Shown one piece after another: positions 22,355 through 37,834 of a DNA stretch of 64,000 nt; position 1 is the stretch's first letter, and each line of letters starts with the position of its first letter. The position numbers and the translations under genes are program-made. The notes beneath the pieces were generated by a model, which was not told the origin of the DNA, ran no database searches, and saw nothing but the letters and a program-made list of their open reading frames with translations. The stretch comes from Rhizomicrobium sp. Lineage in GTDB: Bacteria > Pseudomonadota > Alphaproteobacteria > Micropepsales > Micropepsaceae. Where the stretch lies: NCBI GenBank assembly GCA_036512455.1, contig DATCAT010000014.1, positions 157,205-221,204 of the forward strand. Reading direction: 5' to 3'.

Positions 22355-22427
22355 GCTTGCGGCGCGCTTGGATCGGCCGTGGCGTGGTGTCAGCTCCGAC
22401 GCCGCCTACCCATCCGCAGGAGTTCCC

Positions 22428-23447
22428 ATGGCCAGAAATGCCGCCGCTGCCTTTGTCGCCGCCCTGGCGCTGGGCAGCCTCGTACCCGCGCAGGCGTTCG
22501 CCTGGGGCTCAACCGGGCACCGGATGATCGGCGAGCTGGCGGCGCAAAACCTGCCGGACGAGATGCCGGCCTTCCTGCGCACGCCGGATGCCGTGGCGCA
22601 GATCGGCGAACTGGCGCGAGAGCCGGATCGCTCACGCGGCTCGGGAACGGTGCACGACGCCGAGCGCGATCCCGGGCACTTCGTGGACGCCTCGGACGAT
22701 CTGACCGTCCTGGGCGGCCCCTCGCTCAAGGCGCTGCCGCCGACGCGCTCGGACTACGACACCGCCCTGCGCGCCGCCGGCGCGACGCAATACAAGGCCG
22801 GCTATCTGCCTTATTCGATCATCGACGGCTGGCAACAGCTGCGCACCGATCTGGCCTATTGGCGCATCGACACGGCGGGCGAGAAATTCGCCAAGACGGA
22901 TGCGGCCCGCGACTGGTTCGCCGCCGACCGGCGCCTGCGCGAAATGCTGACGATCCGCGATTTCGGCGTCTGGGCGCACTATGTCGGCGACGCCAGCCAG
23001 CCGCTGCATGTCTCGGTCCATTACGACGTCTGGGGCGACTTCCCCAATCCGGAAGGCTTCTCGACGGTGAAGGGCCTGCACGCGCGGTTCGAAGGCCATT
23101 TCGTCAACGCCAACATCGCCGAAAGCGATCTGTCGCCGCTGCTCGCGCCGACCCGCGACTGCGCCTGCGCCATCGAGGTGCGCACCGCCGACTATCTCGT
23201 CGCCTCGCAAGCCTTCGTCGTGCCGCTGTTCCGGCTGGAGAAGGCGCACGCCTTCGACGGCAACAGCCCGGACGGCAAGGCCTTCGTCGCGGCGCGTCTC
23301 GCCGCCGGTGCGTCGGAGTTGCGCGACATGGCGCTCGATGCCTGGCATGCCAGTGCCGACGTCCGCCTGGGCTATCCGCCGCTCAGCGTCAAGGATATCG
23401 AGGCGGGAACGGTCGACGCCCTCGCCATGATGCAGGGCGCCGAATAG
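22428..23447 (+). CDS. Secreted S1/P1 nuclease
   Basis: AGGAG RBS and signal peptide ending AFA-W. Zn motifs WGSTGH, HFVD, HYVGDASQPLH, LHARFE. Confidence 0.85.
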   Translation: MARNAAAAFVAALALGSLVPAQAFAWGSTGHRMIGELAAQNLPDEMPAFLRTPDAVAQIGELAREPDRSRGSGTVHDAERDPGHFVDASDDLTVLGGPSLKALPPTRSDYDTALRAAGATQYKAGYLPYSIIDGWQQLRTDLAYWRIDTAGEKFAKTDAARDWFAADRRLREMLTIRDFGVWAHYVGDASQPLHVSVHYDVWGDFPNPEGFSTVKGLHARFEGHFVNANIAESDLSPLLAPTRDCACAIEVRTADYLVASQAFVVPLFRLEKAHAFDGNSPDGKAFVAARLAAGASELRDMALDAWHASADVRLGYPPLSVKDIEAGTVDALAMMQGAE

Positions 23448-23461: not shown

Positions 23462-24064
23462 CTAGCGGCCGGCGGACACCGGCACGGCGTCGGCGTTCGC
23501 CCGCGCCAGCAGGTCCCGCAGCCAGTCATTGACGACGGCGTCGATCACCAGATGCACGCGATCCGTCGTGCCCTTGTTGGCGACGCGATGCGGATCGGTC
23601 AGGCGCAGATACCAGGCGCTGCCGGGTTCCATGACGACGCGCCTGCGGTTCAACTCGAACTCCACGCCGGGATTGGTCGCGACCGGAATGTGGATGCGCA
23701 CGGTTCCGTCCTCGGCGCTGAGATCGGGATCGCTGTGTTCCTTTATGATCGAGCCGGGGGTGAGGCGCATCAGCCGAACGCTGCGCAGCTCGCAGGAAAA
23801 GCGCGCCAGGAGGTCGCGGATATTCGGGCAGAGGCCGAGCAGCGGGGTATCTTCGAAAGCCGTCGCGGCCGGATCGGAATAGATCATCATGACCGGATGG
23901 CGCGCCCCGGCCGGCGCGCGCAGCGGCAGCACGCTCCAATCGCCTTCGTAGTTCTGCTTGACGAAATGCTCTATCCAGTCCTGCGACGACAGGCGCTCCA
24001 AATCGCGCGACAGCGCCGCGGGCTCGAAGGCGAGCGGCAGACGCAGACGGTCGGGAAAAGTCAT
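23462..24064 (-). CDS. Aspartyl/asparaginyl beta-hydroxylase family (2OG-Fe(II))
   Basis: VRLMRLTPGSIIKEHSD, RIHIPVATN, HRVANKG, RVHLVID. Confidence 0.88.
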   Translation of the reverse strand: MTFPDRLRLPLAFEPAALSRDLERLSSQDWIEHFVKQNYEGDWSVLPLRAPAGARHPVMMIYSDPAATAFEDTPLLGLCPNIRDLLARFSCELRSVRLMRLTPGSIIKEHSDPDLSAEDGTVRIHIPVATNPGVEFELNRRRVVMEPGSAWYLRLTDPHRVANKGTTDRVHLVIDAVVNDWLRDLLARANADAVPVSAGR

Positions 24065-24222
24065 CTCGCCACTTTATGGCGCCGATCCCCTTGCGGCAAG
24101 AATACCGGGAGCGCGCCCATTTCCCATTCCGCGACTTTTTGGTTGCGCAGGATTGCCTTCTATAATGCGATGACGAGGAGCCGGCGCAACGCGATGCGAT
24201 TCGGACATTCAAAGAGGCTGGC

Positions 24223-25146
24223 GTGCTGAATTCCTATTGCGTGTCGGGCTTGTCGGTCGCCAGCGAGGTCGACCTGCCGGGGCTCATCGGCAAGCCGGCC
24301 GGTCCGCCGGATGTGTCCATCCGCCGGCGTCGTGTACCGCTGGCGCTGGAGAATGCCAGTTCCAAGGGCCCGACCTGGGAAATCGCCGGCGAGCGATTTT
24401 TGCTGCGCATCCCGGGCATCGCGCGCTTTCTGCTCAGCGGCGGGCGCGAGATCGACTTCGAACTCGAAGACGGGGCGACGCTGGGCGACGCCGCGATCTT
24501 CCTCGTCGGCTCGGTCTTCGGCATCCTGCTGCATCAGCGCCGGCGAGTGGTTCTCCACGCCAGTGCTGTCTGCGTGAACGGCAAGGCAGTGCTGTTCTGT
24601 GGACCTTCGGGCGCGGGCAAATCGACGCTCGCGGCGGCGCTCGGGCAACGCGGCTACCCCCTTCTGACCGACGATGTCTGCGCCGTCACCGTGGAGGACG
24701 CCGCGGCGCCATTGGTGCATCCCGATGGGCGCCAGTTGAAGCTATGGCTGCAATCGATCGAGCGGCTCGATCTGGCGGCGCGGCGCGGCGAACGGGTCCG
24801 GACCTGCCTGGAAAAATTCTACGTCGAGTCGGAAAAGTCGGTCGGCGAGCCGCTGGCGCTCGGCGCCGTCTACGCGCTGCGCGAAGCCCGTCCGCCGCAC
24901 GCGCCGGGCATCGACACGCCCAACGTGGTCGACTCTGCGCTTCTTTTGCGGCGCAACGCCTACCGTCCCCTGCTCGTGGGCCGCATGGGGCAGAAGGCGA
25001 TTTACTTTCATGCCGCGACGACGATCGCCAATGTCGCGGGAATTTTTCATCTTTCGCGAGTCTTGGATTTCGCGGCGTTGCCGGATGTCGCCGCGTCGCT
25101 GGAGCGGCATTGGCGGACGCTCGGCCTGCTCGGCAAGGCTGTGTGA
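24223..25146 (+). CDS. HPr-kinase-like kinase (lasso tailoring kinase type)
   Basis: LHASAV, Walker A GPSGAGKSTL, LLTDD. GTG start; translationally coupled to the sulfotransferase. Confidence 0.85.
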   Translation: MLNSYCVSGLSVASEVDLPGLIGKPAGPPDVSIRRRRVPLALENASSKGPTWEIAGERFLLRIPGIARFLLSGGREIDFELEDGATLGDAAIFLVGSVFGILLHQRRRVVLHASAVCVNGKAVLFCGPSGAGKSTLAAALGQRGYPLLTDDVCAVTVEDAAAPLVHPDGRQLKLWLQSIERLDLAARRGERVRTCLEKFYVESEKSVGEPLALGAVYALREARPPHAPGIDTPNVVDSALLLRRNAYRPLLVGRMGQKAIYFHAATTIANVAGIFHLSRVLDFAALPDVAASLERHWRTLGLLGKAV

Positions 25147-26069
25147 TGCGCAGCGTCTGGCTCGCCTCCTATCCGAAGTCCGGCAACACCTGGCTGCGGA
25201 TGCTGATCGCGAACCTGTCGGCGACGGACGGCGCGCCGGTCGACATCAACGACTTGCCGGAGCGCGGCGGCATCGCCAGCGCGCGCGGGCCGTTCGACCA
25301 TCTGCTGCTGATCGATTCCGGCCTGCTGAGCCATGACGAGGCCGATGCTTTGCGTCCGCTGGTTTATGAGGAGCTGGCGCGCGGCGCCGAGGACGACGCG
25401 TACGACAACCCCGAGGCCGCGCCGCCGGTCCGCTTCATCAAGGTGCACGACGCCTATACGCTGACGCCGAACGGCGAGCCGCTTCTGGCGGGCAAAAAAG
25501 GAGCGGACGGCGCCATCGTCATCGTGCGCGATCCGCGCGACGTGGCACCGTCGCTCGCCAACCACAATGGCAGCAGCATCGACGACGCGATCACCTTCAT
25601 GAACGACAAGGCGGCGGCCTTCTGCGCCAGAAGGAACCGGCAGCCCAGTCAACTGCGCCAGCAGCTCCCCGGCTGGAGCGGACACATCGCGACCTGGCTC
25701 GATCAAACCGACATTCCGGTTCACCTTGTCCGCTACGAGGACTTGAAGGCCGATCCGGTTGCCGTGTTGCGCCGGGCGCTTCAGTTCGCGGACCGCGCGG
25801 CCACGGACGAAGAGATACGGCGCGCGGCGGCGTTCGCGGATTTCGGGCAGTTGCGCGCGCAGGAACTGGCGAAGGGGTTTCGCGAAGGGCCGCGCCCGCT
25901 GCAGGGCGGGAATTTTTTCCGCCGCGGCGAGGCGGGCGGCTGGCGCAGCGAATTGACGGCCGAACAGGTTCAGCGCATTGAATCCGAACACGCCGCGATG
26001 ATGCTGCGCCTTGGCTACGCGCCGGCGTCCGCGGAAAACCCGGCCCGCGCCATGGGGGAGACGAGATGA
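25146..26069 (+). CDS. PAPS-dependent sulfotransferase (SULT-like)
   Basis: 5'-PSB YPKSGNTWLR, 3'-PB VRDPRDV, RYEDL, FFRRGEAGGW. Confidence 0.9.
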   Translation: MRSVWLASYPKSGNTWLRMLIANLSATDGAPVDINDLPERGGIASARGPFDHLLLIDSGLLSHDEADALRPLVYEELARGAEDDAYDNPEAAPPVRFIKVHDAYTLTPNGEPLLAGKKGADGAIVIVRDPRDVAPSLANHNGSSIDDAITFMNDKAAAFCARRNRQPSQLRQQLPGWSGHIATWLDQTDIPVHLVRYEDLKADPVAVLRRALQFADRAATDEEIRRAAAFADFGQLRAQELAKGFREGPRPLQGGNFFRRGEAGGWRSELTAEQVQRIESEHAAMMLRLGYAPASAENPARAMGETR

Positions 26070-26341
26070 GAGTGCAAAAGAAGGGCGACTGGCTGGCCGC
26101 GAAAGTCGGCGACGAACTGGTCATGATGAGTGCCGAGAAGGGCAACTATATCGGACTGAGCGAGGTCGGTGCGCGCATCTGGGAACTGATCGAAACACCG
26201 CAGGATGTCGAGGCGGTCTGCAGCCAATTGCAGGCGGAGTACGACGTCACACCCGAGGCCTGCCGCCTCGAAGTCGAGTCTTTTCTCAACGAGCTGGTGA
26301 AACATGGCGCGATTGCGCTCGATCCGCCGCCTGCTGCGTAG
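26066..26341 (+). CDS. PqqD-family RiPP recognition element (lasso B1)
   Basis: 91 aa; YIGLSEVGARIWELIE, LQAEYDVTPEAC..EVESFLNEL; adjacent to B2. Confidence 0.9.
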   Translation: MRVQKKGDWLAAKVGDELVMMSAEKGNYIGLSEVGARIWELIETPQDVEAVCSQLQAEYDVTPEACRLEVESFLNELVKHGAIALDPPPAA

Positions 26342-26780
26342 GTTCGCGCGGATCGGCAATCGCCGCCGCGCCCTGGTGGTCGAGGCGGTGGCGTGGCTGC
26401 TGACGGCGCGGCTCTGCCTGATCTTCATTCCGTTTCCGCGGCTGGCGCGCCGTCTGGGCACATTCGCGCCGCCGACCGATCGGCGCGCCCTGCTGGCGAA
26501 GGCGCCGGGCCCGGACGAACATGCGCGGCTGGCGGGCGAGGTTAGTTGGGCCGTCACCCGCTCGGCGCGCTATGCTCCGTTCAAGGCTGTCTGCTTGCCG
26601 CAGGCGATGGCCGCCCGCATGATGCTCAAGCGGCGCGGCGTTTCCAGCGTGCTGCACTTCGGCGCCGCCAAGGGACAGGACAAACCGCTCGACGCGCATG
26701 CCTGGCTGGATGCCGCGGGTGTCGAGGTCACCGGCTATCCGGTGGCGAAGGGGTTCGCGGAGATCGCGTGCTTCGTGTGA
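26304..26780 (+). CDS. Lasso peptide leader peptidase B2 (transglutaminase-like)
   Basis: Catalytic Cys and His in AVCLPQAMA and DAHAWL; VLHFG strand. Confidence 0.9.
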   Translation: MARLRSIRRLLRRFARIGNRRRALVVEAVAWLLTARLCLIFIPFPRLARRLGTFAPPTDRRALLAKAPGPDEHARLAGEVSWAVTRSARYAPFKAVCLPQAMAARMMLKRRGVSSVLHFGAAKGQDKPLDAHAWLDAAGVEVTGYPVAKGFAEIACFV

Positions 26781-26797
26781 GCAATCGATAACAATGG

Positions 26798-27493
26798 TTG
26801 GGGCGACGGCCCATGTCGATGATCGAACCCGGACAGGACGATAAAGCCGCGATGCCGGCAGCCAAGGCCATGATGCCGCCCTATCTCGTGCTGCGGGATT
26901 TTCTCGACGAAGAGACGGTGGAGGGACTGCTCGCGCACGCCCGGGTCCACCAATCCGATTTCGCGCCGACGAAAGTCGGTTCGAAGGCGGTCAACAACTC
27001 GGTTCGCGTCTCGCTGGGTCTGCGCGGCCTCGGCGACTACCGGCGGGTGCTGAAGAGCAGGCTGTTCGACCTGGTCCCGAGGCTCATCGCTGAGTTGCAG
27101 GTAACGCCCTTTGCAGAGCCCAAACTCGAGACCGAATTGGTGGCGCATGGCGATGGGGCGTTTTACAGACGCCATATCGACACCCAAACGGCGCGCTACG
27201 ACGACGTGCGGCAGATACGCGTCCTGAGCGGCGTCTATTATTTCCATGCCGAGCCCAAGGCGTTCAGCGGCGGCGCCTTGCGGCTTTTCGCCATCGGGCC
27301 CGAGCCCGCGCCGCATGTCGATATCGAGCCGCTGCGCAACAGCCTGCTGGTCTTCCCCTCCTGGGCGCCGCATGAGGTCAGGCCGGTGCAGTGTCCGTCG
27401 AACAATTTCATGGACTCGCGTTTCGCGATCAATTGCTGGCTTCTGCGCGCCAAACCCGCCGCGGCGGCCGATCCCGTAGAGCCCGCCGGCTAG
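26798..27493 (+). CDS. 2OG-Fe(II) oxygenase (prolyl-hydroxylase-like); start codon uncertain
   Basis: YRRHIDT (HxD), LSGVYYF, FSGGALRL, PHEVRPV, SRFAINCW. Confidence 0.85.
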   Translation: MGRRPMSMIEPGQDDKAAMPAAKAMMPPYLVLRDFLDEETVEGLLAHARVHQSDFAPTKVGSKAVNNSVRVSLGLRGLGDYRRVLKSRLFDLVPRLIAELQVTPFAEPKLETELVAHGDGAFYRRHIDTQTARYDDVRQIRVLSGVYYFHAEPKAFSGGALRLFAIGPEPAPHVDIEPLRNSLLVFPSWAPHEVRPVQCPSNNFMDSRFAINCWLLRAKPAAAADPVEPAG

Positions 27494-27513
27494 CGATTAT
27501 CGCGCGGCGAACC

Positions 27514-28707
27514 TCAGTACTCTTCGTCATCGCGCGGTCTGATCAGGTTGAGGTCGAAGGCGATGGCGATGCGCGGCTCGGTTCCGCGCGTCGGCACGAC
27601 GGAATGGAAGAAATGCGACGGGAAAATCGTCGCCACGCCCGCGACCGGCTTGATGTAGCGTTTCCCCCAGCACGGCTTCCGGCCTTCGGCGTCATCACGC
27701 CACGGGCCCACCAGGAGCGCGCCGGCCCTGTCGTCTGCGCCTTCATTCGGGGGTATCGAGACGTGATAGACGCCCGAGACATAGGCATATTTGTGCAGAT
27801 GCGCCGGATGGCTATCGCCTGCGTGAACGACATTGGCGCCGGTGACGAGAATTCCCTCCGCCGGCGCGCCCGGCATGATCTCGTCGAGTCCGCGATTTGG
27901 AAAATCCGCGAGATATCGTTCGATCGCGGCGCGCATGAAGACGGTGATCGCCGCATAGGCACGTTCGTGCGCCAGACCCAGATGCTCGGTGCGCAGGAAA
28001 TCGTAGGTCCGCCGGCGCGCCAGGCCGGGACTGTCCAATATCTCCCCAGCCAGCATGGCATTGAAGTTCTCGATGCCGCCGAATTCCGGCGTCGGTTCGA
28101 ACGGCACCTGCCAAACGTGACGATCCAGATCGACCAGCTTTCGCGCTTCGTCGACGCGGCCCGCGCGGTCGAGCCCGATGGCGCGAAAGCCGCGCGCGAC
28201 GGTGCAATTGGCATAGCCGGGCGCAAGCGTGTCGCAAAATGCCAGCAGGGCGTTGTCGTCGGGATCGCGCGCCAGGCCTTGCAGCAGAGCAGCGGCCGAT
28301 TCGTAGGCTGCCGGGCTGGTTCGCATCGCCGCGTAGAACGCGTCGCGCGAATCGTCCCGCCGGCGAAGGTCTCTAAGCGCAGCCCCGCGCAGGTGATGGA
28401 AACTGGCGATGTTCGGATGGGACCCGGCTGCCAGCGCGCGATCGCAGACCTGCAAGGCGTCTTGCGCCCTGCCCAGCATGAAATAACATCGCGCCAGCGC
28501 AAACTCGCGCAGGGATACGCCGTCCGGCGCCCGGGCGCGCGTGAACGCCTCCGCGGCTTCATCGAATTGCCCCAGACGGAAGAGGACATCGCCGAGCCGC
28601 GCCAGTTTTTCGGAATCGCGCGGCCATCGCGCTACGAGTTCGCGGTGCAACGCAAGCTGTACGTCCAGAGGGACGGGTCGCGGCGCATCGGCGTCGATCC
28701 AGCGCAT
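27514..28707 (-). CDS. TPR repeats plus putative 2OG-Fe(II) oxygenase domain
   Basis: N-terminal TPR helices (LGDVLFRLGQFDEAAEAF); C-terminal HPAHLH..YVSGVYHV, FPSHFFHSVVP, RIAIAFD. Confidence 0.75.
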   Translation of the reverse strand: MRWIDADAPRPVPLDVQLALHRELVARWPRDSEKLARLGDVLFRLGQFDEAAEAFTRARAPDGVSLREFALARCYFMLGRAQDALQVCDRALAAGSHPNIASFHHLRGAALRDLRRRDDSRDAFYAAMRTSPAAYESAAALLQGLARDPDDNALLAFCDTLAPGYANCTVARGFRAIGLDRAGRVDEARKLVDLDRHVWQVPFEPTPEFGGIENFNAMLAGEILDSPGLARRRTYDFLRTEHLGLAHERAYAAITVFMRAAIERYLADFPNRGLDEIMPGAPAEGILVTGANVVHAGDSHPAHLHKYAYVSGVYHVSIPPNEGADDRAGALLVGPWRDDAEGRKPCWGKRYIKPVAGVATIFPSHFFHSVVPTRGTEPRIAIAFDLNLIRPRDDEEY

Positions 28708-28927
28708 CGGTCAAATTCCAACGGCTCGACAAGGGGCGGCCAGGCGCGAACGTTCACGGGAATCGGCCAAGTGAATTTCGTCCCGATGGTTGGGGCAATC
28801 CAACCATTAGTCGGTGTTAATATCAAATGTCGGCGTTCTGTTGCGTGAGGCCGGCGCGTCCCGCCGCATTGGCACCCTGCGCGGCTTGTAGGTTAAGCTC
28901 TCGTGGGGCAATTGCGGATCGAGACTT

Positions 28928-29788
28928 GTGACGCGGGACGCAGCGACGGCAGAGAGTCCGAGGCGGCGGTACGACCTGACGTCCGCAGCCGCCGACTATG
29001 CGCCCTGGCAGGGCGCGCCGCTGCGAACGCTCGTGATCTGCACACAGCAGAGGTCCGGCAGCACGCTGCTGGGCGAGGCGATGTATTTCGCCGGCGGCAT
29101 GGGATGTCCGTTGGAGTATTTCCATTCCGGCTTCCGCCCGGACTTCGAAGCGCGCTTTCAGCCGGCGGACATTCACGCCTACGCCGCCACGCTGCACGAA
29201 CTTCGAACCGACACGAGCGGCGTGTTTTCCGTCAAACTGTTTTGGCAGGACGCCATCGACCTGGTTCGCGAAATCGCGCCGTCCGAATTTCATTGGCGGC
29301 GCAACGGCCATGCCATGCAACTCGATCCCGATGCCCATCGCCGCATCTTCGCGATCCTTGCGAATCTGGTGCCGAACCCCACGCTCGTTTTCCTCCGCCG
29401 CCGCGACACGATTCGTCAGGCTGTTTCCTTGTTCATGGCCGGAAGGAGCCGCCAATGGCGTCAGCTTTCGCCAGGCAAAGGCTCCGGCGCCAGGGCGACG
29501 GTGGCCTATGACTTCCATCGAATATTCCGCTTTCTTTCCACGATACAAAGAACCAACACGCATTGGACGAACTTCTTCGGCGCCAATGGCCTGGCGCATT
29601 ACGAGATGGTCTACGAAGATCTCGAAAGCGACTATCAAGGCACGCTGCGGCGGTTCTTCGATGCCCTCGGCCGGCAGGATGCCGCGATCGCGGCGCCGCG
29701 ATTGCACAAGCAGTCCGATATCCACTCCGAGGAGCAGTTGCAGCGCTTCCTGTCCGAATTCCGCCACAGGTCGGGTCGGGAAGCCTGA
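28928..29788 (+). CDS. Stf0-family sulfotransferase
   Basis: ICTQQRSGSTLL, PLEYFH, VFSVKLFW, LRRRDTIRQAVS, MVYEDL. Confidence 0.85.
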   Translation: MTRDAATAESPRRRYDLTSAAADYAPWQGAPLRTLVICTQQRSGSTLLGEAMYFAGGMGCPLEYFHSGFRPDFEARFQPADIHAYAATLHELRTDTSGVFSVKLFWQDAIDLVREIAPSEFHWRRNGHAMQLDPDAHRRIFAILANLVPNPTLVFLRRRDTIRQAVSLFMAGRSRQWRQLSPGKGSGARATVAYDFHRIFRFLSTIQRTNTHWTNFFGANGLAHYEMVYEDLESDYQGTLRRFFDALGRQDAAIAAPRLHKQSDIHSEEQLQRFLSEFRHRSGREA

Positions 29789-29808
29789 GCGGATCCTGAA
29801 CGCCCTGC

Positions 29809-31719
29809 TCAGCGATTGCCCCGCCGGAACCATTCGATGTAGCGGGCCTGGATGAAATACACGACGGCCTGACGCGTGTCGTATTCGGAGCCGGAATTGT
29901 GGTCGTCGGCCCGCCGCCGCGTCAGCATCTTGCGCATGCGCGGAAAATCGAAGCGGTGCGAGAGTTTGCCGTCGCCTTCCATGCGATCGATCTCGGCCAG
30001 AATTTGCGGCTCGATGCTCTTGGCCATGGCCAGAAAATCGGGCTTGAGATCGTCATTGCCCCGGCCGCGCGTTTGATATTCGGGCGGATACAGGTCTTTG
30101 AGCGCCTGGCGCGCGAGGTAACGTTCGCGGCCGCCCTTGACCCAGAGATCCTCCGGAATAGCGAGCGCCAGTTCGATCACCCGCTTGTCGTGAAAGGGCT
30201 GGGTGAATTCGAGGCCGCAGGCGGCCGGAATGCGCGAGCCGGCAAGGGCGCGGCCGTTCTGGTGGCTTTCCAGCGCCCTTGTCATGCGCGCGCGTCTTTG
30301 CGCGCCGCTGACGGGCTTTGACGCGCGGGCCTCGATGCCGGCGGAGGCCTGCACCTTCACCAGCGGCCAGGTCGAACCGAACAGCGCCAGGCCGTGGCGG
30401 TGACGCATTCTCACGCGATTGATTTGCTGCGGCAGCAGGTTCGCCACCACTTCGGCCCAGGCAATTCGCCAGACGCCCGCGCCGCTGTGGCGCCGATAAG
30501 CGCGGAACTCGGAAACGAATTCGCGCAGGCGGCCCTGGCGCAGCAGACTGTAGAGCCACGGATGGTTTCTCGGATTGAGCGTGTAGTCGCCGCCATGACC
30601 GTCCATGATGACCTTGGCGCCCGCGGCCGCCGCCGTCGCATGGATGTCGTCGGTGATATAGCCGCCCGCGCTCGTGGGACCCTCGCCGCCGAAGAACGAT
30701 TTCTCCATCGCCGTGAAAATGCTGCGTCCGGCGCCTGTGACATAGCGAACGTCGAGATGCGGCATGAACCTGGAGCAGATCTCGGCCCAGCGCCGGGCGT
30801 GGCGGATCGTGCCGCGATAGTCTTGCGGCATCGCCGAGCAGATGCAGATGAGTTTGCGGTTCTGCGCCGCAACAATGGGGCCGGCGAGGGCGGCGATGGC
30901 GGTGGAATCGAAACCGCCGCCGAAGAACAGCGCTCCGGGCTGGGTGGTGCGCCGCAAGCGGCAGGCCACCGCTTCGCCCAGCACGCGGCGATAGGCGGCG
31001 ACATAATAGGCTTCGTCCTGGCCTTGGTGACGCGGATCCGCCCTCGGTTGCCAATAGCGCCGCACGCTTGTGGCGCCGTCGGCGGCGACCGTCATCACGG
31101 TGCCGCCGGAAATCGCCGATATGCCGTCGAACGGTGTCACTGCAATTTCCACATTGCGGTTGAGCAGTTTAGCCGAGCCGAGCATGTCGTCCAGCAGCAC
31201 ACGCGGAACGTCGCCGAGCGCCCACAATCCCTTGATCTCCGTCGCGAAAGCGAAAAAGCCTTCGGCGCGATGAAAGGCGATGCGACGCTGGCCCATGTGA
31301 TCGCGTGCCAGGACAAGTTTTCCGGCGCGCGCGTCCCAGATGGCGAACGCGAAATCGCCAAGCAGGCGATCGACGCAGTCCTCGCCCCATCGCGCGTAGG
31401 CGCGCAGCAGGAGCGCACTGTCGGCCATGTCGCGCAGCGTCTCGGTGTCGATGCCGAGCGCCTTCGCAAGCTCCTCGCGGTTGTCGAGCCGAAGATCGGC
31501 GACCAGCGTCAGGGCGCCGGCCTCGTCGCGCAGCGGCTGGGCATCGAAGCGATCCTCCTGTGTGACGCGCATGAGCAGGTGGGCGAGGCCGACGGGGCCG
31601 TCATGCCAGGCGCGGCGGCGATCGGGGCCGAGATGACCCATCGCGTTCATCTGCCGTTCGAGATCGCGCGCGGCGACGGCCGCGCCATCGAAGCGCAGGA
31701 TTCCGCAGATGCCGCTCAC
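29809..31719 (-). CDS. Asparagine-synthase-like lasso cyclase (C protein)
   Basis: Starts MSGICG (Ser replaces the catalytic Cys), ARDHMGQR, PP-loop variant GGGFDS, MDGHGGD, QPFHDKRVIE. Lies downstream of the precursor on the same strand. Confidence 0.85.
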   Translation of the reverse strand: MSGICGILRFDGAAVAARDLERQMNAMGHLGPDRRRAWHDGPVGLAHLLMRVTQEDRFDAQPLRDEAGALTLVADLRLDNREELAKALGIDTETLRDMADSALLLRAYARWGEDCVDRLLGDFAFAIWDARAGKLVLARDHMGQRRIAFHRAEGFFAFATEIKGLWALGDVPRVLLDDMLGSAKLLNRNVEIAVTPFDGISAISGGTVMTVAADGATSVRRYWQPRADPRHQGQDEAYYVAAYRRVLGEAVACRLRRTTQPGALFFGGGFDSTAIAALAGPIVAAQNRKLICICSAMPQDYRGTIRHARRWAEICSRFMPHLDVRYVTGAGRSIFTAMEKSFFGGEGPTSAGGYITDDIHATAAAAGAKVIMDGHGGDYTLNPRNHPWLYSLLRQGRLREFVSEFRAYRRHSGAGVWRIAWAEVVANLLPQQINRVRMRHRHGLALFGSTWPLVKVQASAGIEARASKPVSGAQRRARMTRALESHQNGRALAGSRIPAACGLEFTQPFHDKRVIELALAIPEDLWVKGGRERYLARQALKDLYPPEYQTRGRGNDDLKPDFLAMAKSIEPQILAEIDRMEGDGKLSHRFDFPRMRKMLTRRRADDHNSGSEYDTRQAVVYFIQARYIEWFRRGNR

Positions 31720-31885
31720 GGCGCCGCTTCGCGCAACGGGCCGGCGACACGGTCGCGTTCTAACAGCGTCGAAAGTCCGTGATGTGCGGATAAGGGCCGG
31801 CGCATCGTTTCGCTACCGGTTTCACCCTGCCAATGTCGTCCTGCGCGGCAAGCACATTTCCGCTGCGGGGGTCTGCAAACCGCCG

Positions 31886-32050
31886 CTAGCTTCCTGACTG
31901 GGCGGTATTGGGAGATGAGTTATGGTTTTCTGTAATGTCGGGGATGTCCTTGTTCGTCCCACTGGCTTCCGCCGTCACGATCACTTTCGGCGTTGACCAC
32001 GGCTTGCGCGCTGCAGCGCAACCCGATTCGGTGGACACTTTCTCAGACAT
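31886..32050 (-). CDS. Putative lasso/RiPP precursor, 54 aa: MSEKVSTESGCAAARKPWSTPKVIVTAEASGTN-KDIPDITENHNSSPNTAQSGS
   Basis: WxxPxV leader motif, Thr at -2, Glu at core position 8, C-terminal Ser. Located 166 bp upstream of the cyclase. Confidence 0.8.
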   Translation of the reverse strand: MSEKVSTESGCAAARKPWSTPKVIVTAEASGTNKDIPDITENHNSSPNTAQSGS

Positions 32051-32259
32051 GGCCGTCTTCCCCGCAGCACGACAACGCACATAAGTTGACACAAAGTAAT
32101 GGCGCAAATCAATCGCCTTCGGCGAACGCCGTCTTTATTGCGTGGAAATGGTTCAAAAACTATTGCCTGAGGCAGAGTTCCTTGGTAAATAAGATTAAGA
32201 CTAGCCACCTCGCTGCGGTGGTGGGCTCCTGACGCGGCGACTAATCCATGGGGTGATTG

Positions 32260-32778
32260 ATGACCAGTCCGTATCTCGGCGAAATCAAGCTTATGCCCTG
32301 GAGCTTCGCACCGCGAGGTTGGGCGTTTTGTGCTGGGCAAATACTGTCAATTCAGCAGAACACAGCGTTGTTCTCCCTGCTCGGTACAATCTACGGCGGT
32401 AACGGTCAGACGACGTTCGGTTTGCCGGATCTGCGCGGCCGCGTGCCGATCCATCGCGACCAGCAGGGTCAATATCCGCAAGGCGACATGGAAGGCGAGG
32501 AGCAGGAAACGCTCTCGCTGAGCGAGATGCCGGCGCACAATCATTCCTTCGTGGGTACGTCGGCGGCCGGCGGCGCGGGCTCGCCGACCGGTCTGACAAT
32601 TCTGGCCGCCCCGAATCTGCCGGCGAATGCTTACTACGGCCCCGACACGACGCCGACACCGATCGCGCCGACGAGCGTCAGTCCCGTCGGCGGCAATCAG
32701 CCTCACCAAAATATGCAGCCCTTCCTCACGATGAATTATTGCATCGCGCTGAACGGCATATTCCCGGCGCGCAACTAG
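32260..32778 (+). CDS. Phage tail-collar domain protein 1
   Basis: YLGEIKL..FAPRGWAFCAGQ, LFSLLGTIYGGNGQTTFGLPDLRGR; C-terminal HQNMQPFLTMNYCIALNGIFP. Confidence 0.92.
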   Translation: MTSPYLGEIKLMPWSFAPRGWAFCAGQILSIQQNTALFSLLGTIYGGNGQTTFGLPDLRGRVPIHRDQQGQYPQGDMEGEEQETLSLSEMPAHNHSFVGTSAAGGAGSPTGLTILAAPNLPANAYYGPDTTPTPIAPTSVSPVGGNQPHQNMQPFLTMNYCIALNGIFPARN

Positions 32779-32821
32779 ACGACGGCGGGACGCACAAACC
32801 AATTTACGGAGGACGGGCGGT

Positions 32822-33361
32822 ATGGTTACACCTTTTATCGGAGAGCTTCGGCCGTTTGCGGGCAACTTCGCGCCGAGAAACTGGGCGATGGCGAATGGGC
32901 AGCTTTTGAGCATCGCGCAGAACGCGGCGCTGTTCTCGCTGCTCGGCACCACCTATGGCGGCAACGGGGTCAACACGTTCGCCTTGCCAAATCTGCAAGG
33001 CACGCTGGCGATCAATCAAGGCCAGGGACCGGGGCTGACGTCGCGCACGTTGGGCGAGATCGGCGGAACCGAGAACGTGACGCTGCTGCAGGCGAACTTG
33101 CCAATCCACAACCATACGATGAACGCGACAACCCAGCCCGCGGTGGCGAATGCGCCGCCGGGAAACACTGTTCTGGGCGGCACGATCACGGCACCCGGCT
33201 CGCTCTATATCACGCCGGGTAGTCCGACGCCCGTTCCGGAAGTATTTCCGGCCAATGCCTGCGGCATCGCGGGCAGTAGCTTGCCGCATCCCAACATGAT
33301 GCCGGCGCTGGTGATCACCTACATCATCGCCTTGTCGGGCATTTTCCCCAGCCGCAATTGA
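32822..33361 (+). CDS. Phage tail-collar domain protein 2
   Basis: FIGELRPFAGNFAPRNW, YGGNGVNTFALPNLQG; C-terminal HPNMMP..YIIALSGIFPSRN. Confidence 0.92.
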   Translation: MVTPFIGELRPFAGNFAPRNWAMANGQLLSIAQNAALFSLLGTTYGGNGVNTFALPNLQGTLAINQGQGPGLTSRTLGEIGGTENVTLLQANLPIHNHTMNATTQPAVANAPPGNTVLGGTITAPGSLYITPGSPTPVPEVFPANACGIAGSSLPHPNMMPALVITYIIALSGIFPSRN

Positions 33362-33380
33362 AACACGAGGAAGACCGAAC

Positions 33381-33926
33381 ATGAGCAATATGTACATCGG
33401 AGAAATCCGGCCGTTTGGCTTCACCTTCGCACCCCAGAACTGGGCGTTTTGCGATGGCCAGCTGATGTCCATCGCCCAGAACTCGACGCTGTACGCGGTG
33501 ATCGGCACGACCTATGGCGGCGACGGACAGACCACCTTCGGGCTTCCCGATCTGCGCGGCCGCGCGACGATGCACCAGGGCACGGGTCCGGGGCTGACCC
33601 AGCGCGTGATCGGCCAATCCTTTGGAACGCCGAATGTGACGCTGATAGCCTCGCAAATGCCGGCCCATGTGCACACTTTGAACGCCGCCCAGCCCGCGCT
33701 GCACGGCGAAGGCTTGTTCACGGGCACGCCGGGTCCGACCGTGCTTTATTCCAACAGCGCGCCCGGCAAGGCTTGGCATGGCGAGGCGAGTCCGCCGCCC
33801 TATGTCAATTTCTCGAACAAAGCGATCTCGATCAATGGCGGGTCGCTGCCGCACGACAATCTGCAGCCGCTCCTGTCGGTCAATTTCTGCATTGCGCTCT
33901 TCGGGATTTTCCCGTCGCAGAACTAG
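33381..33926 (+). CDS. Phage tail-collar domain protein 3
   Basis: YIGEIRPFGFTFAPQNWAFCDGQ, YGGDGQTTFGLPDLRGR; C-terminal HDNLQP..NFCIALFGIFPSQN. Confidence 0.92.
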   Translation: MSNMYIGEIRPFGFTFAPQNWAFCDGQLMSIAQNSTLYAVIGTTYGGDGQTTFGLPDLRGRATMHQGTGPGLTQRVIGQSFGTPNVTLIASQMPAHVHTLNAAQPALHGEGLFTGTPGPTVLYSNSAPGKAWHGEASPPPYVNFSNKAISINGGSLPHDNLQPLLSVNFCIALFGIFPSQN

Positions 33927-33963
33927 CCGTTCGGGGAGGCGCTGACGAAACGGGGCGGCGGCC

Positions 33964-34482
33964 ATGTTCGCGTTGCCGTCCTCGCTTGTCTCTGAAGGCT
34001 TCTCGCTGCGGCCGGAGACTGAAGCGGATATTCCGTTCCTCGCCGGGCTCTTCGCCTCGACGCGCGCCGAGGAGATGGAGCGCATCGTTGAATGGACCGC
34101 CGAACAGAAGCAGGCGTTTCTGTTCGATCAGTTCCGGCTGCAGCGCCACCACTACTACACCCATTTCCCGAACTGCGAGTTCCTCGTCCTGGAACGCGGC
34201 GGCGTGGCCGGCGGGCGAATTTATCTCGACAGCACGCCCAATTCGCTCGATCTCATCGACATCTCGCTCCTTCCCCCATGGCGCGGCCGGGGCACGGGCA
34301 CGACGCTGCTGGACGCCGTCATCGCCGCCGCCCGCGCCGGCGGCCGGCGTGTCACGATTTTCGTCGAAAAGTTCAATCCGGCGCTGAACCTCTACCGCCG
34401 CTTGGGATTCCGCGAGATCGCCGATACCGGGCTCTATCTCGAAATGGAATGGCGCGCGGACGCCGCCGGGAACGTCAGTTGA
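33964..34482 (+). CDS. GNAT acetyltransferase
   Basis: DISLLPPWRGRGTGTTLL, NPALNLYRRLGF. Confidence 0.9.
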   Translation: MFALPSSLVSEGFSLRPETEADIPFLAGLFASTRAEEMERIVEWTAEQKQAFLFDQFRLQRHHYYTHFPNCEFLVLERGGVAGGRIYLDSTPNSLDLIDISLLPPWRGRGTGTTLLDAVIAAARAGGRRVTIFVEKFNPALNLYRRLGFREIADTGLYLEMEWRADAAGNVS

Positions 34483-34777
34483 ACGTGCAATCGTAGAATA
34501 CGCCGCGTTCGTCCTTGCCCGTCGGGACCAGGAACAGCGTCAGGCTGCCCAATGCCGCGTTCTGCAGGCGCCACAGACGCTGCTCGAGGATGCGCGGATC
34601 CTGGGCCAGGAACGTCAACGAAAAGGGCGGCCGGAGCGCCGGCCGCTGACCGCGGACCGCCAGCGCGTCGGCCGCCTTCAGGGTCAGCGAGATCGGCGGG
34701 ACATCGGTTTCGTCGACCATGAAGATCTGTCCGATCAGGCCGGTGAAGTCCTCCAGAACAAATTGCCGTTCCGTCAT
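34475..34777 (-). CDS. DUF6916-like protein
   Basis: 100 aa; RPPFSLTF, LEQRLWRL, LFLVP, YDCTFN. This family typically accompanies tail-collar triplets. Confidence 0.75.
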   Translation of the reverse strand: MTERQFVLEDFTGLIGQIFMVDETDVPPISLTLKAADALAVRGQRPALRPPFSLTFLAQDPRILEQRLWRLQNAALGSLTLFLVPTGKDERGVFYDCTFN

Positions 34778-34933
34778 GTGCGTCCCGATTTTCTTGGCGC
34801 CGTATTTTAGGTGGCAGAGGCGCCCATCTGCAAGACGGCCGCCTTGTCCTGCGGTCTAGCGCCTCAAGTTCGCCAAGACCGGCGGCTTTGTGCAACAGTT
34901 CGCCTTCCAGATTAGGCAAATGAGGAACGCGGA

Positions 34934-35086
34934 ATGTTTACTCTCATCGGGCTCGGCATCAACGTCATCGTCGCCGCCATGGTCATCGGGATCTACGCCA
35001 AACTCGACGATCTGTCGCGCGCGGTGAGCCGCTTGACGGCTCAGGGCGTCGCGCCGCCACAAGCGTCTTCGCCGCCGCAGGCGTAG
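34934..35086 (+). CDS. Small membrane protein, 50 aa (not in ORF track)
   Basis: GAGGA RBS at 34922; MFTLIGLGINVIVAAMVIGIYAKLDDLSRAVSRLTAQGVAPPQASSPPQA; one TM helix plus a short coiled segment. Confidence 0.55.
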   Translation: MFTLIGLGINVIVAAMVIGIYAKLDDLSRAVSRLTAQGVAPPQASSPPQA

Positions 35087-35103
35087 CGGGCGCCGATGCG
35101 CCT

Positions 35104-36324
35104 TCAGGTTTTTCCGGCGGTCTGCCCAAGCCGCAGGGCTTCCAGTCGGCGGTAGCTCTCGGCCAGATGACGGTCCACCGCGGTCCGCATCGCAGCCGTC
35201 GTCGCCCGCTGCTTGGAGATTGAATCGGGGGCGAATGTCTCGCTGGGGGATTTCGCGTTGTAGCGCGCTTTTTCCGCCATGACGTCGTGCTCGGATGCGC
35301 TGTAGGCGACGCCGAAATGCGGCAATATGGCCGTCGCCAGCGCCTCCGGCAGCTGGCGGTAATTGACCAGCAGCCCGTTGCCCTTGGGAAACGCCTCCAG
35401 CACGGCATCGCAGATCTTTGCCAGCACGCGCGCGCAATAGTCTTCGTCCGGCACGCCGCCCGGCAATTGCAGATCGTAAAACGGCGGCGGGAAAAATTCC
35501 GGGACCATCTGCGTGCCGCGTTGCCATGCCTGCGAGACCAGCACTTCGAGCGGGTCGCGATAGAGAAACACCCAGGGCACGGACGGGAAGGCTCGCCGGA
35601 ACCAGGGCAGCGCCAGCGTGTGCCAGCTGTCCAGCTTGACGAAATAGTGTCTCTCGCCGCCGCCGCGCATTTGGCCGAAGGCCGCGATCATCGCCGTCAG
35701 GAGCGCGGTATTCCTCTCATCGTTTCGGACGCGGCAGAGTTGCACAACGGCGTCGATCGGGCTTGCCTCGGAGACGACGATGTTCTGCGGCAGGGCGCCG
35801 AGCATCTGGGCAGCCAGCGTCGAGCCGCAGCGCGACATGTGAAAAATGAAGCCGCTCGGCTGCAACACCGGCAACTCATGCGACCATCGCGCGAGATCCG
35901 GCAGCGGCGTGCGGAAGCGAAACAGCCGGTTGAATGGCCGGCGCAAGATCTGCCGGATCGAGTCTTCATAGAACGGTTCGCTCAGGCGCCGGTCGCCGAA
36001 ATACGCCCAATCGACGGCAAGCCGATCGCCTTGCCCGAACATCTGGATCGGAAGCCAGCCCTTTTGCAGCGGTGAGGGGGCGGCCAGGGGTGCCGCCACG
36101 AGGCGCTCCAGGCCCAAGGGATCGGGGCGCAAGAACGGCGTCAAATCGTCCGCTGCCAGGGCGATGGCGCGGGCCCGCGCCGCAGCGACCGTCCGTTCGA
36201 CGAATTGCGCAATGTCGTCAATCGTCCCCAGGGCGGCTTGCAGTGCGCCGTCGTTCAGGACGAGGACGCGAAAGCGATCCAGCTCGTGTCTTGCGCCGTT
36301 CGCCCCGTCCGCCACCATTTGCAT
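35104..36324 (-). CDS. Sulfotransferase-like P-loop protein
   Basis: FIFHMSRCGSTLA, FVKLDSW, FLYRDPLEVLVS. Confidence 0.75.
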   Translation of the reverse strand: MQMVADGANGARHELDRFRVLVLNDGALQAALGTIDDIAQFVERTVAAARARAIALAADDLTPFLRPDPLGLERLVAAPLAAPSPLQKGWLPIQMFGQGDRLAVDWAYFGDRRLSEPFYEDSIRQILRRPFNRLFRFRTPLPDLARWSHELPVLQPSGFIFHMSRCGSTLAAQMLGALPQNIVVSEASPIDAVVQLCRVRNDERNTALLTAMIAAFGQMRGGGERHYFVKLDSWHTLALPWFRRAFPSVPWVFLYRDPLEVLVSQAWQRGTQMVPEFFPPPFYDLQLPGGVPDEDYCARVLAKICDAVLEAFPKGNGLLVNYRQLPEALATAILPHFGVAYSASEHDVMAEKARYNAKSPSETFAPDSISKQRATTAAMRTAVDRHLAESYRRLEALRLGQTAGKT

Positions 36325-37741: not shown

Positions 37742-37818
37742 GGTGAAATTCCTTTTCGGTATCGCAGAGCAGATCATATCGCTTGATCGTCCAACTCATT
37801 GAAATTGCGTGAAACTGC

Positions 37819-37834
37819 GTAAATTCCCGTTAAC
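37819..37834 (+). promoter_or_regulatory. CtrA-like box GTAA-N7-TTAAC (one mismatch)
   Basis: Lies 78 bp upstream of the kinase ATG; consensus is TTAA-N7-TTAAC. Confidence 0.45.

Follow-up and report, generated by a model that had tools for sequence, protein, structure and literature searches.

Lasso-peptide clusters are known in which split B1/B2 proteins and the cyclase are accompanied by a kinase homologous to HprK and the precursor ends in Ser: those of paeninodin (PadeK), ThcoK and Sphingobium yanoikuyae SyanK (Zhu et al. 2016, via PMC8498205, PMC9266682). Kinases of this type, including the proteobacterial SyanK, act on linear lasso precursors, whose C-terminal Ser they (poly)phosphorylate (PMC8498205, PMC9266682). 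In pseudomycoidin (kinase PsmK, nucleotidyltransferase PsmN; Zyubko et al. 2019, via PMC9266682), the phospho-Ser made by the kinase is extended by a second enzyme. Tail-collar domains are known from the T4 gp12/gp37 fibre tips (PDB 1ocy, 1pdi, 5iv5, 8kec) and from the DSLV2 virophage, where three collar-type proteins in succession assemble into a heterotrimer that binds LPS (PMC12724248). Outside phages, alphaproteobacterial collar-domain proteins include RhiB of the Rhizobium rhiABC(D) genes and the Ruegeria exoprotein YP_165745, both tied to cell-cell or host interaction (PMC13133039, PMC4949626).

The region described here belongs to a 64-kb window (the whole stretch of Rhizomicrobium DNA analysed) and contains two conserved modules. 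The first is a kinase-type lasso-peptide pathway, made of a precursor ending in Ser, an RRE, B2, a cyclase, an HprK-like kinase and a PAPS sulfotransferase; the second is a phage tail-fibre-tip cassette, in which three collar paralogs in fixed order are joined by a GNAT and a DUF6916 protein. Gene calls in the window were based on third-position GC and on Pfam and NCBIfam matches, and every gene named in the first-pass annotation was found where it had been placed, between 23462 and 36324 (Table 1). All three 2OG oxygenases that it listed are present; however, the third, in which the oxygenase domain is combined with TPR repeats, had to be corrected to the minus strand. A plus-strand ORF of 485 aa antisense to this gene (27391-28848) had no matches and no homologues and was set aside as a decoy. 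Both flanks, the S1/P1 nuclease on one side and FadL with the histidine kinase on the other, are kept in Rhizomicrobium relatives, thus the proposed boundaries of the cluster are correct.

Table 1. Features of the lasso/collar region and its flanks.
Feature	Coordinates	Strand	Support or remark
S1/P1 nuclease	22368-23447		left flank
Asp/Asn beta-hydroxylase-family 2OG oxygenase (OH)	23462-24064	-	PF05118 6.8e-15
HprK-like lasso-peptide kinase (K)	24223-25146	+	PF07475 6.4e-7; TIGR04352 1.4e-13
PAPS-type sulfotransferase, Sulfotransfer_1 (S1)	~25143-26069	+	PF00685 1.7e-21; start uncertain, open frame extends upstream
PqqD-type RRE (lasso B1)	26066-26341	+	PF05402 6.3e-21; NF033536 (lasso_PqqD_Bac) 6.6e-21
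Lasso leader peptidase B2	26304-26780	+	NF033537 86.9 bits (cut-off 33 bits); PF13471 1e-24
2OG-Fe(II) oxygenase (Oxy_3)	26798-27493	+	PF13640 5.1e-17
TPR + 2OG-Fe(II) oxygenase (Oxy_5)	27514-28707	-	PF13759 4.8e-17; TPR repeats
Stf0-type sulfotransferase	28928-29788	+	PF09037 3.7e-26
Lasso macrolactam cyclase (C)	29809-31719	-	NF033535 5e-99
Lasso precursor	31886-32050	-	ORF; WxxPxV-leader family
Divergent intergenic region, precursor/Col1	32051-32256		206 bp
Tail-collar paralog 1 (Col1)	32257-32778	+	PF07484 9.5e-28
Tail-collar paralog 2	32822-33361	+	PF07484 2.1e-25; positional orthologue group p2
Tail-collar paralog 3	33381-33926	+	PF07484 7.5e-29; positional orthologue group p3
GNAT acetyltransferase	33964-34482	+	PF00583 1.2e-11
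DUF6916 small beta-barrel protein	34475-34777	-	PF21880 3e-20
Sulfotransfer_3 protein (S3)	35104-36324	-	PF13469 1.4e-6, residues 159-341
FadL and histidine kinase	from 36410		right flank

A lasso-type RiPP cluster, of the kind in which a kinase acts on a C-terminal Ser, had been proposed, and the gene identities together with the Ser-ending precursor support this assignment. Cys97 and His132 of B2 are invariant in the homologue alignment, as is the PP-loop GGGFDS of the cyclase among its relatives. For the latter, the lasso cyclase family NF033535 (5e-99) was matched far better than asparagine synthase (TIGR01536, 1.2e-53). The cyclase has no N-terminal Cys, and relatives carry W, H or F at position 5, which is Cys in this protein, hence there is no glutaminase nucleophile. 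The precursor leader ends ...RKPWSTPKVIVTAEASGTN and the predicted core is KDIPDITENHNSSPNTAQSGS, from which a Lys1-Glu8 ring and a C-terminal Ser are predicted. The WxxPxV leader is shared by 76 distinct precursors, of which 75 have Ser as their last residue and 73 carry Asp or Glu at predicted core positions 7-9; leaders are conserved and cores hypervariable in this family.

The constant partners of the lasso genes are only the kinase and Sulfotransfer_1, a pair present in nearly all lasso loci. Their motifs are invariant: the P-loop GxxGxGKST and a DD motif in the kinase (68 homologues), and the 5'-PSB PKSGNTW, the catalytic His and the 3'-PB RDPR..S in the sulfotransferase (60 homologues). 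The Oxy_3, TPR-2OG and Stf0 genes are sporadic, lineage-specific accessories, with Oxy_3 found in just a few related loci and Stf0 adjoining the cyclase in four (L001, L011, L100 and L120). NTP_transf_5 genes homologous to the pseudomycoidin nucleotidyltransferase occur at 10/43 loci with both modules (joint loci) and at 5/27 with lasso genes only.

The three collar proteins, 172-181 aa long and without a shaft, are matched by PHROG tail proteins along their whole length; Col1, for instance, matches the phrog_9116 tail protein over residues 7-165 (7.3e-26). Their profile aligned with the phage long tail fibre 8kec (6e-9, HxH motifs in register) and with T4 gp12 (~1e-3), and the motifs P-x-H-x-H and QPHxN are invariant in Col1, of which the monomer model was unreliable (pLDDT 44). 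No signal peptide was found on the collar proteins and no virion genes in this region. The three positions correspond to orthologous groups (13 label changes, compared with 84 in shuffles). The DUF6916 protein was modelled by AF2 as a six-stranded barrel (pLDDT 92.7), which had no significant structural match in PDB and BFVD.

We then asked how the two modules are distributed. In the family sample of 151 genomes, collars were found in 11/14 genomes with lasso B2 and in 9/137 others, an odds ratio of 52 at the genome level, although related genomes are non-independent; both modules lay within ~10 kb of each other in 9 genomes. In an unbiased class sample of 401 Alphaproteobacteria genomes, 9 of the 21 collar triads, in nine genomes, lay at most ~10 kb from full lasso gene sets, and two further triads had a precursor and PqqD only. 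Independence of the collar, GNAT and DUF6916 genes from the RiPP genes had been named in the first-pass annotation as an argument against its proposal. Such independence exists in part, about half of the alphaproteobacterial triads having no lasso genes nearby; still, the linkage is far above chance. Conversely, collars are missing from ~40% of the kinase-type lasso loci, and since each module is thus found singly, each can work alone.

We compared 43 joint, 27 lasso-only and 25 collar-only loci; many joint loci come from related Sphingomonadales, so that these counts overstate independence. Among the cyclase relatives, the pairing was seen in Rhizomicrobium, Sphingomonas, Novosphingobium, Xanthobacteraceae/Pseudolabrys, Hyphomicrobiales and a Gemmatimonadaceae MAG. 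Joint loci span no fewer than four orders plus a second phylum and vary in the order and orientation of their genes, but the precursor directly adjoins the collar block in 33/38 loci: in 27 it is divergent from Col1, in 3 it lies immediately upstream in the same orientation and in 3 it follows the GNAT gene directly. In the collar tree, the lasso-linked triads form a clade of 34/34 with 4 state changes overall, whereas collar linkage switches at least 10 times in the cyclase tree, across two deep clades. Lasso-linked triads are also ~5 charges less acidic than others, a weak difference confounded by clade. All together, the linkage of the modules is non-random and resists rearrangement; the junction between RiPP and collar genes, to which the earlier annotation had drawn attention, is meaningful, and a functional coupling of the two modules is very probable. 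Both cassettes could instead hitch-hike on one variable island with no functional link. In Rhizomicrobium, indeed, the entire block occupies a single variable site, with the S1/P1 nuclease gene on one side and the FadL and histidine kinase genes on the other, and the collar genes are slightly lower in GC (0.61). Such passive transport would not account for a pairing that outlasts many rearrangements in varied genomic settings, for the strength of the genome-level association or for a collar clade specific to lasso clusters, and we regard it as the least likely of the explanations considered.

GNAT and DUF6916 are members of the collar cassette and not of the lasso gene set: GNAT was found at 39/43 joint, 11/25 collar-only and 1/27 lasso-only loci, and DUF6916 at 37/43, 12/25 and 1/27, respectively. 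They accompany collars with or without lasso genes, so acetylation of the peptide is not supported. With the accessory enzymes occurring only sporadically as well, the earlier suggestion of a single peptide decorated by all enzymes of the cluster (phospho, sulfo, hydroxy, acetyl) is not supported either. OH and S3 behave differently, being kept almost only where both modules co-occur (OH at 24/43 joint and 1/27 lasso-only loci, S3 at 28/43 and 1/27, neither at any of the 25 collar-only loci). The His/Asp metal ligands of OH (27 homologues) and the RCGST motif of S3 are invariant in alignments; the N-terminal 150 aa of S3 had no Pfam match. Both the peptide and the collars are candidate substrates. 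It could be argued that hydroxylase, Sulfotransfer_3 and GNAT all modify the collars or a collar-bound surface glycan, the lasso cluster being adjacent merely through use of the same PAPS and enzyme pool. The association of GNAT and DUF6916 with collars fits this idea, and sulfation of sugars is a known activity of Stf0-type enzymes (named trehalose 2-sulfotransferase in NCBIfam). Against it, OH and S3 are absent from all 25 loci with collars but no lasso genes, and in Sphingomonas loci S3 heads a one-strand run S3-K-S1-D-cyclase; we therefore consider it very unlikely.

The explanation that we favour overall, though we hold it at slightly below even, is that the two modules work together and that the lasso peptide links them. 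The RRE would bind the WxxPxV leader, the HprK-like kinase would phosphorylate the C-terminal Ser on the linear precursor and the adjoining PAPS sulfotransferase would attach sulfate; B2 would then cleave after Thr-Asn and the cyclase form the Lys1-Glu8 ring, an order of steps that we infer from published homologues. The three fixed-order collar paralogs would most likely assemble into a 1:1:1 heterotrimer clamped by metal at the HxH motifs, a hypothesis in which GNAT and the DUF6916 barrel would be helpers of the trimer itself. The precursor and the first collar gene may be controlled from their common divergent region, which spans 206 bp between the starts at 32050 and 32257, in agreement with the "about 210 bp" estimated earlier. 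The mature, strongly anionic peptide might then serve the fibre-tip trimer as a small partner, be it ligand, cofactor or cargo, the two forming a two-part recognition or delivery device. That the coupling consists of such a physical partnership is a tentative hypothesis. It is weakened by the occurrence of each module alone, by the lack of a motif common to the divergent regions of different genera, and by the collars having no signal peptide and this cluster no exporter gene, which leaves peptide and trimer with no evident place to meet.

Peptide and trimer might also be independent outward-facing tools, the former an antimicrobial or scavenger and the latter a lectin-like adhesin or bacteriocin, co-regulated and deployed together with no physical interaction. 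The occurrence of each module alone in many genomes would fit, as would one triad (L105) that immediately follows a PKS operon and the similar frequency of McjD-like ABC exporters at joint (9/43) and lasso-only (7/27) loci. Yet the precursor keeps its place at the collar block while other lasso genes shift, a dedicated collar clade follows the lasso clusters and OH and S3 are nearly confined to joint loci, all of which makes separate action unlikely. Alternatively, the secreted peptide could be an autoinducer-like cue that controls the collar operon through the divergent promoter region. This would agree with the divergent arrangement kept in 27 loci and with the quorum-sensing regulation of the operon encoding the collar-domain protein RhiB (PMC13133039). 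However, the pair is not accompanied by any conserved sensor or regulator gene: FadL and the histidine kinase merely flank it in Rhizomicrobium and are absent from the Sphingomonas loci. Neither a sigma-70-like promoter nor a regulatory motif or operator common to different genera was found in the divergent precursor/Col1 regions, and hypervariable cores behind conserved leaders are more easily reconciled with recognition or antagonism than with signalling by a conserved peptide. We consider a signalling role distinctly unlikely, and the peptide-trimer partnership remains our preferred reading.

The recurrent pairing points to an undescribed partnership. Our literature search found no paper describing it, in line with the earlier statement that no characterised product of this combination is known, and the reviews consulted do not mention a collar triad, GNAT or DUF6916 at kinase lasso clusters. 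Compared with the paeninodin, ThcoK and SyanK clusters, the kinase is here nearly always paired with a PAPS sulfotransferase, core residue 1 is a predicted Lys, the cluster lacks an exporter and is joined to the collar triad, GNAT and DUF6916, and the system is known from its genes alone. Where pseudomycoidin uses a nucleotidyltransferase, which this window lacks, the constant second enzyme is here a sulfotransferase. Actinobacterial lasso clusters likewise encode a 2OG hydroxylase (canucin A/CanE) or an acetyltransferase (albusnodin/AlbT) (PMC8498205), but the hydroxylase here is of the PF05118 family and the GNAT is part of the collar cassette. In rhiABC(D), the Pfam collar domain is restricted to RhiB and absent from RhiA and RhiC, and no RiPP genes are reported next to RhiB or YP_165745, unlike here. 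A close parallel to the triad is the tripartite tail of DSLV2, likewise made of three collar-type paralogs in succession; DSLV2, the T4 tips and our proteins have the collar domain and the HxH metal motif in common. Unlike these, the collars described here are chromosomal, short and shaftless, stand apart from virion genes, and are accompanied by GNAT and DUF6916 and linked to a RiPP cluster. In several bacterial orders, a cluster predicted to make a phosphorylated, sulfated knotted peptide adjoins such a fibre-tip-like trio.

Genes in the window were called by third-position GC, since its GC content is high (about 65%), and then by family matches. The first-pass annotation had described a lasso-like RiPP cluster joined to a triplet of tail-collar genes, and every item of its gene list was borne out by family matches in the window. 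The precursor gene and the first collar gene diverge across a gap of 206 bp; a sigma-70 scan for a promoter in the window found no promoter-like site. A plus-strand ORF of 485 aa (27391-28848) was rejected as a gene, since neither Pfam nor NCBIfam matched it and none of 20 loci contained a homologue. The true gene is its antisense partner, which encodes TPR and 2OG oxygenase domains; both ORFs use the same codon phase, and only the minus-strand member is a gene. Shadow ORFs are common at 65% GC. A PADLOC scan of ten proteins of the region gave no match to any defence protein model, and a defence-system reading was dropped on that count.

Genes of the window cluster in order, with the number of loci of each class that carry a homologue (joint: lasso module and collars together)
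Feature	Position	Strand	Joint	Lasso-only	Collar-only	Remark
S1/P1 nuclease	22368-23447					left boundary gene
PF05118 Asp/Asn beta-hydroxylase family (OH)		-	24/43	1/27	0/25	
HprK-like kinase		+	40/43	22/27		
Sulfotransfer_1 PAPS sulfotransferase		+	39/43	18/27		
PqqD/RRE (B1)		+	41/43	26/27		
Lasso leader peptidase (B2)		+	27/43	13/27		
2OG-FeII_Oxy_3		+				
TPR-2OG-FeII_Oxy_5	27514-28707	-				
Stf0 sulfotransferase		+				
Lasso cyclase		-	41/43	26/27		
Precursor	31886-32050	-				
Collar protein 1 (Col1)	from 32257	+				
Collar protein 2 (Col2)		+				
Collar protein 3 (Col3)		+				
GNAT		+	39/43	1/27	11/25	
DUF6916		-	37/43	1/27	12/25	
Sulfotransfer_3 protein (S3)		-	28/43	1/27	0/25	
FadL	36410-37777					right boundary gene

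In Rhizomicrobium the joint cluster always occupies the same chromosomal position, flanked by the S1/P1 nuclease gene and the FadL/histidine kinase genes (36410-39346), as seen in the window and in loci L003, L004, L011-L013, L021 and L074. Its internal gene order varies by species, so that the site is variable while its address is fixed.

We examined whole genomes for the two sets of genes. Among 151 genomes of the family, 14 carried the lasso B2 gene and 20 carried collars; collars were present in 11 of the 14 B2 genomes versus 9 of the 137 others, an odds ratio of 52 that comes from related, non-independent genomes. Twenty loci were fetched from this sample and the window proteins mapped onto them. 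In nine genomes the collar triad lay within about 10 kb of lasso genes, in one of them at two separate loci; the sample also held lasso clusters without collars (L017-L020) and triads without lasso genes (L006-L009, L014). A search of the genomes of 185,579 species with a four-sequence cyclase alignment then gave the nearest 80 cyclase loci, of which two contigs were loci already in the genus sample. Their hosts were Rhizomicrobium, Sphingomonas, Novosphingobium, Xanthobacteraceae/Pseudolabrys, Caulobacteraceae, Beijerinckiaceae and Telmatospirillum, and one locus came from a Gemmatimonadaceae MAG. The three collar genes with GNAT and DUF6916 stood beside the cyclase in about 30 of the 80. These loci (L021-L100) were picked by cyclase similarity and are biased towards lasso genes; the unbiased samples are the 151 genomes and a class-wide set of 401 Alphaproteobacteria anchored on collars.

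The class-wide set yielded 21 triads from 15 genomes. Full lasso gene sets were present at a distance of at most about 10 kb from nine of them, which came from nine genomes of different families; another two (L107 and L117) were accompanied only by a PqqD gene and a lasso-type precursor, and ten had no lasso genes. A locus drawn at random would have a triad within 10 kb with a frequency well below 1%; the counts observed do take in related genomes and are not independent events. Moreover, gene order and orientation vary widely among the joint loci, indicating that the linkage has outlived many rearrangements. The linkage is non-random and centred on the precursor. Two reviews of lasso tailoring (PMC8498205, PMC9266682) do not mention a union with a tail-fibre-tip cassette, and we found no description of this conserved union in the searchable literature.

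To which module each gene belongs was determined with HMMs built from the collected homologues and scanned over 126 loci which, after removal of duplicates, comprised 43 joint, 27 lasso-only and 25 collar-only loci (see the table). The lasso module consists of the kinase, Sulfotransfer_1, RRE, B2, cyclase and precursor genes, and the collars form a separate cassette with GNAT and DUF6916. An acetylated peptide had been suggested at the outset; GNAT follows the collars and not the lasso genes (1/27 lasso-only versus 11/25 collar-only loci), and that picture is therefore unsupported. OH (the PF05118 hydroxylase) and S3 are all but confined to loci in which the two modules occur together, and the hydroxylase may act on the peptide. 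One alternative is that tailoring enzymes of the cluster act on the collars themselves. The 2OG, TPR-2OG and Stf0 genes of the window are sporadic accessories that sit beside the cyclase in a few lineages, with collars or without.

Two further readings of individual genes were discarded. By eye, the first 158 aa of the Sulfotransfer_3 protein resembled Nif11; Pfam gave no match to them even at E values up to 10. Collars as a substitute for a missing ABC exporter fared no better, McjD-like exporters being found in 9/43 joint and 7/27 lasso-only loci. Several joint loci of Sphingomonas and Novosphingobium (L071, L084, L089, L092, L096, L099 and L115) also have an NTP_transf_5 gene, absent from the window, after DUF6916 or ahead of the cluster. 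In pseudomycoidin, phospho-Ser is glycosylated by an enzyme of this family (PMC9266682).

The lasso enzymes could be assigned with different margins. B2 scored 86.9 bits against NF033537 (cut-off 33), with Cys97 and His132 invariant across the collected homologues. The RRE scored 74.9 bits against PF05402 (cut-off 23.4) and 74.3 bits against NF033536, slightly below the cut-off of 80. The top NCBIfam match of the cyclase was the lasso cyclase model NF033535 (5e-99; 332.7 bits, short of the curated cut-off of 525), compared with only 1e-53 for the asparagine synthase model; the PP-loop GGGFDS is kept and the N-terminal Cys nucleophile is absent. The kinase matched TIGR04352 (1.4e-13) and PF07475 (6.4e-7), and its P-loop Lys and Asp-Asp pair, invariant across the collected homologues, are the residues that map onto the published lasso-kinase motif H-K-D-D (PMC9266682). 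Both PAPS-binding motifs of Sulfotransfer_1 are likewise invariant across the collected homologues. By gene content the window thus has the B2, RRE, cyclase and precursor of a lasso cluster, with a predicted threaded macrolactam product. In the paeninodin/ThcoK/SyanK group the signature is a terminal Ser together with an HprK homologue, and the kinase (poly)phosphorylates this Ser on the linear precursor (PMC8498205, PMC9266682). The window encodes an HprK homologue and a Ser-ending precursor, whose phosphorylation is predicted; its lasso genes add a new member to the kinase-type family.

The precursor (MSEKVSTESGCAAARKPWSTPKVIVTAEASGTN / KDIPDITENHNSSPNTAQSGS) has a leader ...WSTPKVIV...GTN with Thr at -2, a predicted core KDIPDITE... 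with Glu at position 8, and the C-terminus ...QSGS. Small ORFs with the same leader (R/K-x-W-x-x-P-x-V/I...) adjoin the cyclase in relatives. Among 76 distinct members of this precursor family, 75 end in Ser and 73 have Asp or Glu 7-9 residues past the leader/core junction, where Thr or Ser at -2 is usual. Lys is the most frequent predicted first core residue (27/73, and more with a one-residue shift of the AK, SK and NK junctions), which is atypical for lasso peptides yet the commonest choice in this family. In many members the acid lies exactly seven residues from Lys, so that Lys must open the core and cannot be the residue that ends the leader. A Lys1 lasso would offer both an alpha-amine and an epsilon-amine for ring closure. 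A His two residues past the ring acid (E/D-x-H) is also frequent in the predicted cores of the window and L001-L120 precursors.

The precursor is where the two modules join. Of the 38 loci in which collars occur and a precursor can be recognised, 33 have it directly beside the collar block: it diverges from Col1 in 27, as in the window, and lies on the same strand directly upstream of Col1 in three, and directly downstream of GNAT in three. The remaining lasso genes lie on either side of this pair and in either orientation; for example, precursor and cyclase converge in Sphingomonas, and in the window the cyclase lies downstream of the precursor, with the precursor/Col1 arrangement the same in both. 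A shared motif was sought in 25 divergent precursor/collar regions, and none rose above shuffled controls except between close relatives.

Trees of the two sides differed in the number of changes in linkage. On the cyclase tree (104 rows), collar linkage was scattered over both deep clades and required at least 10 changes, or 12-14 when unscored rows were included. On the tree of concatenated triads (59 rows), the lasso-linked triads formed one clade (34/34, including the window) plus a mixed clade, with 4 changes, which indicates that a specialised collar lineage has stayed with lasso clusters. A collar clade is dedicated to lasso clusters; on the cyclase side gains or losses were numerous, and satellite precursor-cyclase pairs that lack every other lasso gene were among them.

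The satellite loci, from Xanthobacteraceae and other MAGs (L022-L047, L050-L052, L057, L059-L062, L067), contain only a precursor and a cyclase 55-60% identical to that of the window, and kinase, RRE and B2 genes are absent within 10 kb; MAG MFD02416.bin.1.330 alone has at least nine cyclase loci. Such pairs suggest that one enzyme set serves many precursor-cyclase pairs. Minimal cassettes of PqqD, GNAT, DUF6916, a lasso-type precursor and three collars were seen among housekeeping genes in L107 (7250-11053) and L117 (8969-12781), with no cyclase or kinase within 10 kb; their PqqD stretches are identical and their core peptides quite different. In L033 (about 9036-10000), GNAT and DUF6916 adjoin a lasso cyclase and the 10 kb upstream lack collar genes; the two may be the remnant of a lost triad. 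A collar triad in L105 (9061-19925) lies directly downstream, on the same strand, of a type I PKS operon (KS, ACP, thioesterase and a PKS of more than 2273 aa), so collars may also stand beside natural-product clusters other than lasso ones. Genome G000 has a second lasso locus (contig C2, L128) with two kinases, two cyclases, RRE, B2 and a McjD-like ABC exporter and no collars, and on its contig C32 (L127, 13 kb) a second, shortened pair of collar-domain ORFs (138 and 155 aa) without lasso genes.

All three collar proteins carry the Collar domain PF07484 (1e-25 to 1e-29), match phage tail proteins (phrog_9116) over their full length, and have invariant P-x-H-x-H and QPHxN motifs. A PDB search with a single collar sequence gave no match; the collar profile matched a phage long tail fibre (8kec, 6e-9, with P-x-H-x-H aligned) and T4 gp12 (about 1e-3). 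Between 20 and 40 kb of the window, as in related loci, there were no capsid, sheath, baseplate or integrase genes, and with no virion or tailocin genes nearby the triad is not a phage tail fibre, though it is derived from one. The three positions are orthologous groups in a kept order (13 label changes versus 84 in shuffles), which fits what an obligate 1:1:1 heterotrimer would predict, the trimer being putative. A monomer model of Col1 reached a pLDDT of 44; a poor model might be expected of an intertwined trimer, but is not evidence for one. The DUF6916 model (pLDDT 92.7) is a six-stranded barrel whose best fold matches, phage neck proteins in the PDB (E 0.09) and uncharacterised phage proteins of about 115 aa in BFVD (E 0.01), are not significant and at most suggestive of a phage origin.

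How might the two modules work together? By analogy to published homologues, the RRE would bind the leader, the kinase would phosphorylate the Ser that ends the linear precursor, B2 and the cyclase would build a Lys1-Glu8 lasso, and Sulfotransfer_1, always beside the kinase, would add sulfate. The resulting anionic peptide could then pair with a Col1-Col2-Col3 heterotrimer as its small component (ligand, plug or cargo), with OH and S3 adapting one partner to the other. A tentative proposal, which we consider rather doubtful, is that the heterotrimer physically binds the modified lasso peptide, a RiPP thereby serving as ligand, plug or cargo of a domesticated phage receptor-binding tip, with the fit tuned by OH and S3. 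Lasso-linked triads are about 5 charges less acidic than other triads, a difference that is confounded by clade and lends weak support to this partnership. Against it count the occurrence of the lasso module and the collar cassette each alone, collars without signal peptides and a window cluster without an exporter, and a shared operator not found in the 25 divergent regions. Peptide and collars might instead be deployed together without contact, the lasso peptide might act as a signal, or, least probably, the two modules might be neighbours by chance.

For lasso peptides, and for the non-phage collar triads of many bacteria, the link supplies a candidate partner that can be tested in the search for their native roles. 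The reading of such clusters is corrected as well: genome-mining tools would score GNAT and DUF6916 as peptide tailoring, possibly along with the hydroxylase and the second sulfotransferase, when at least GNAT and DUF6916 belong to the collar cassette. Should peptide and trimer bind, this would be a new bacterial reuse of a phage receptor-binding module and a new kind of two-part device, and would assign a native role to a whole branch of lasso peptides as well as to the widespread collar triads of bacteria.

Among known systems, the Rhizobium protein RhiB is, like the triad, a non-phage collar protein; RhiA and RhiC are not, and identity of the triad with rhiABC was ruled out because only RhiB has the collar domain. 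The nearest published analogue is the tripartite tail set of virophage DSLV2, in which three consecutive tail proteins form an LPS-binding heterotrimer (PMC12724248).
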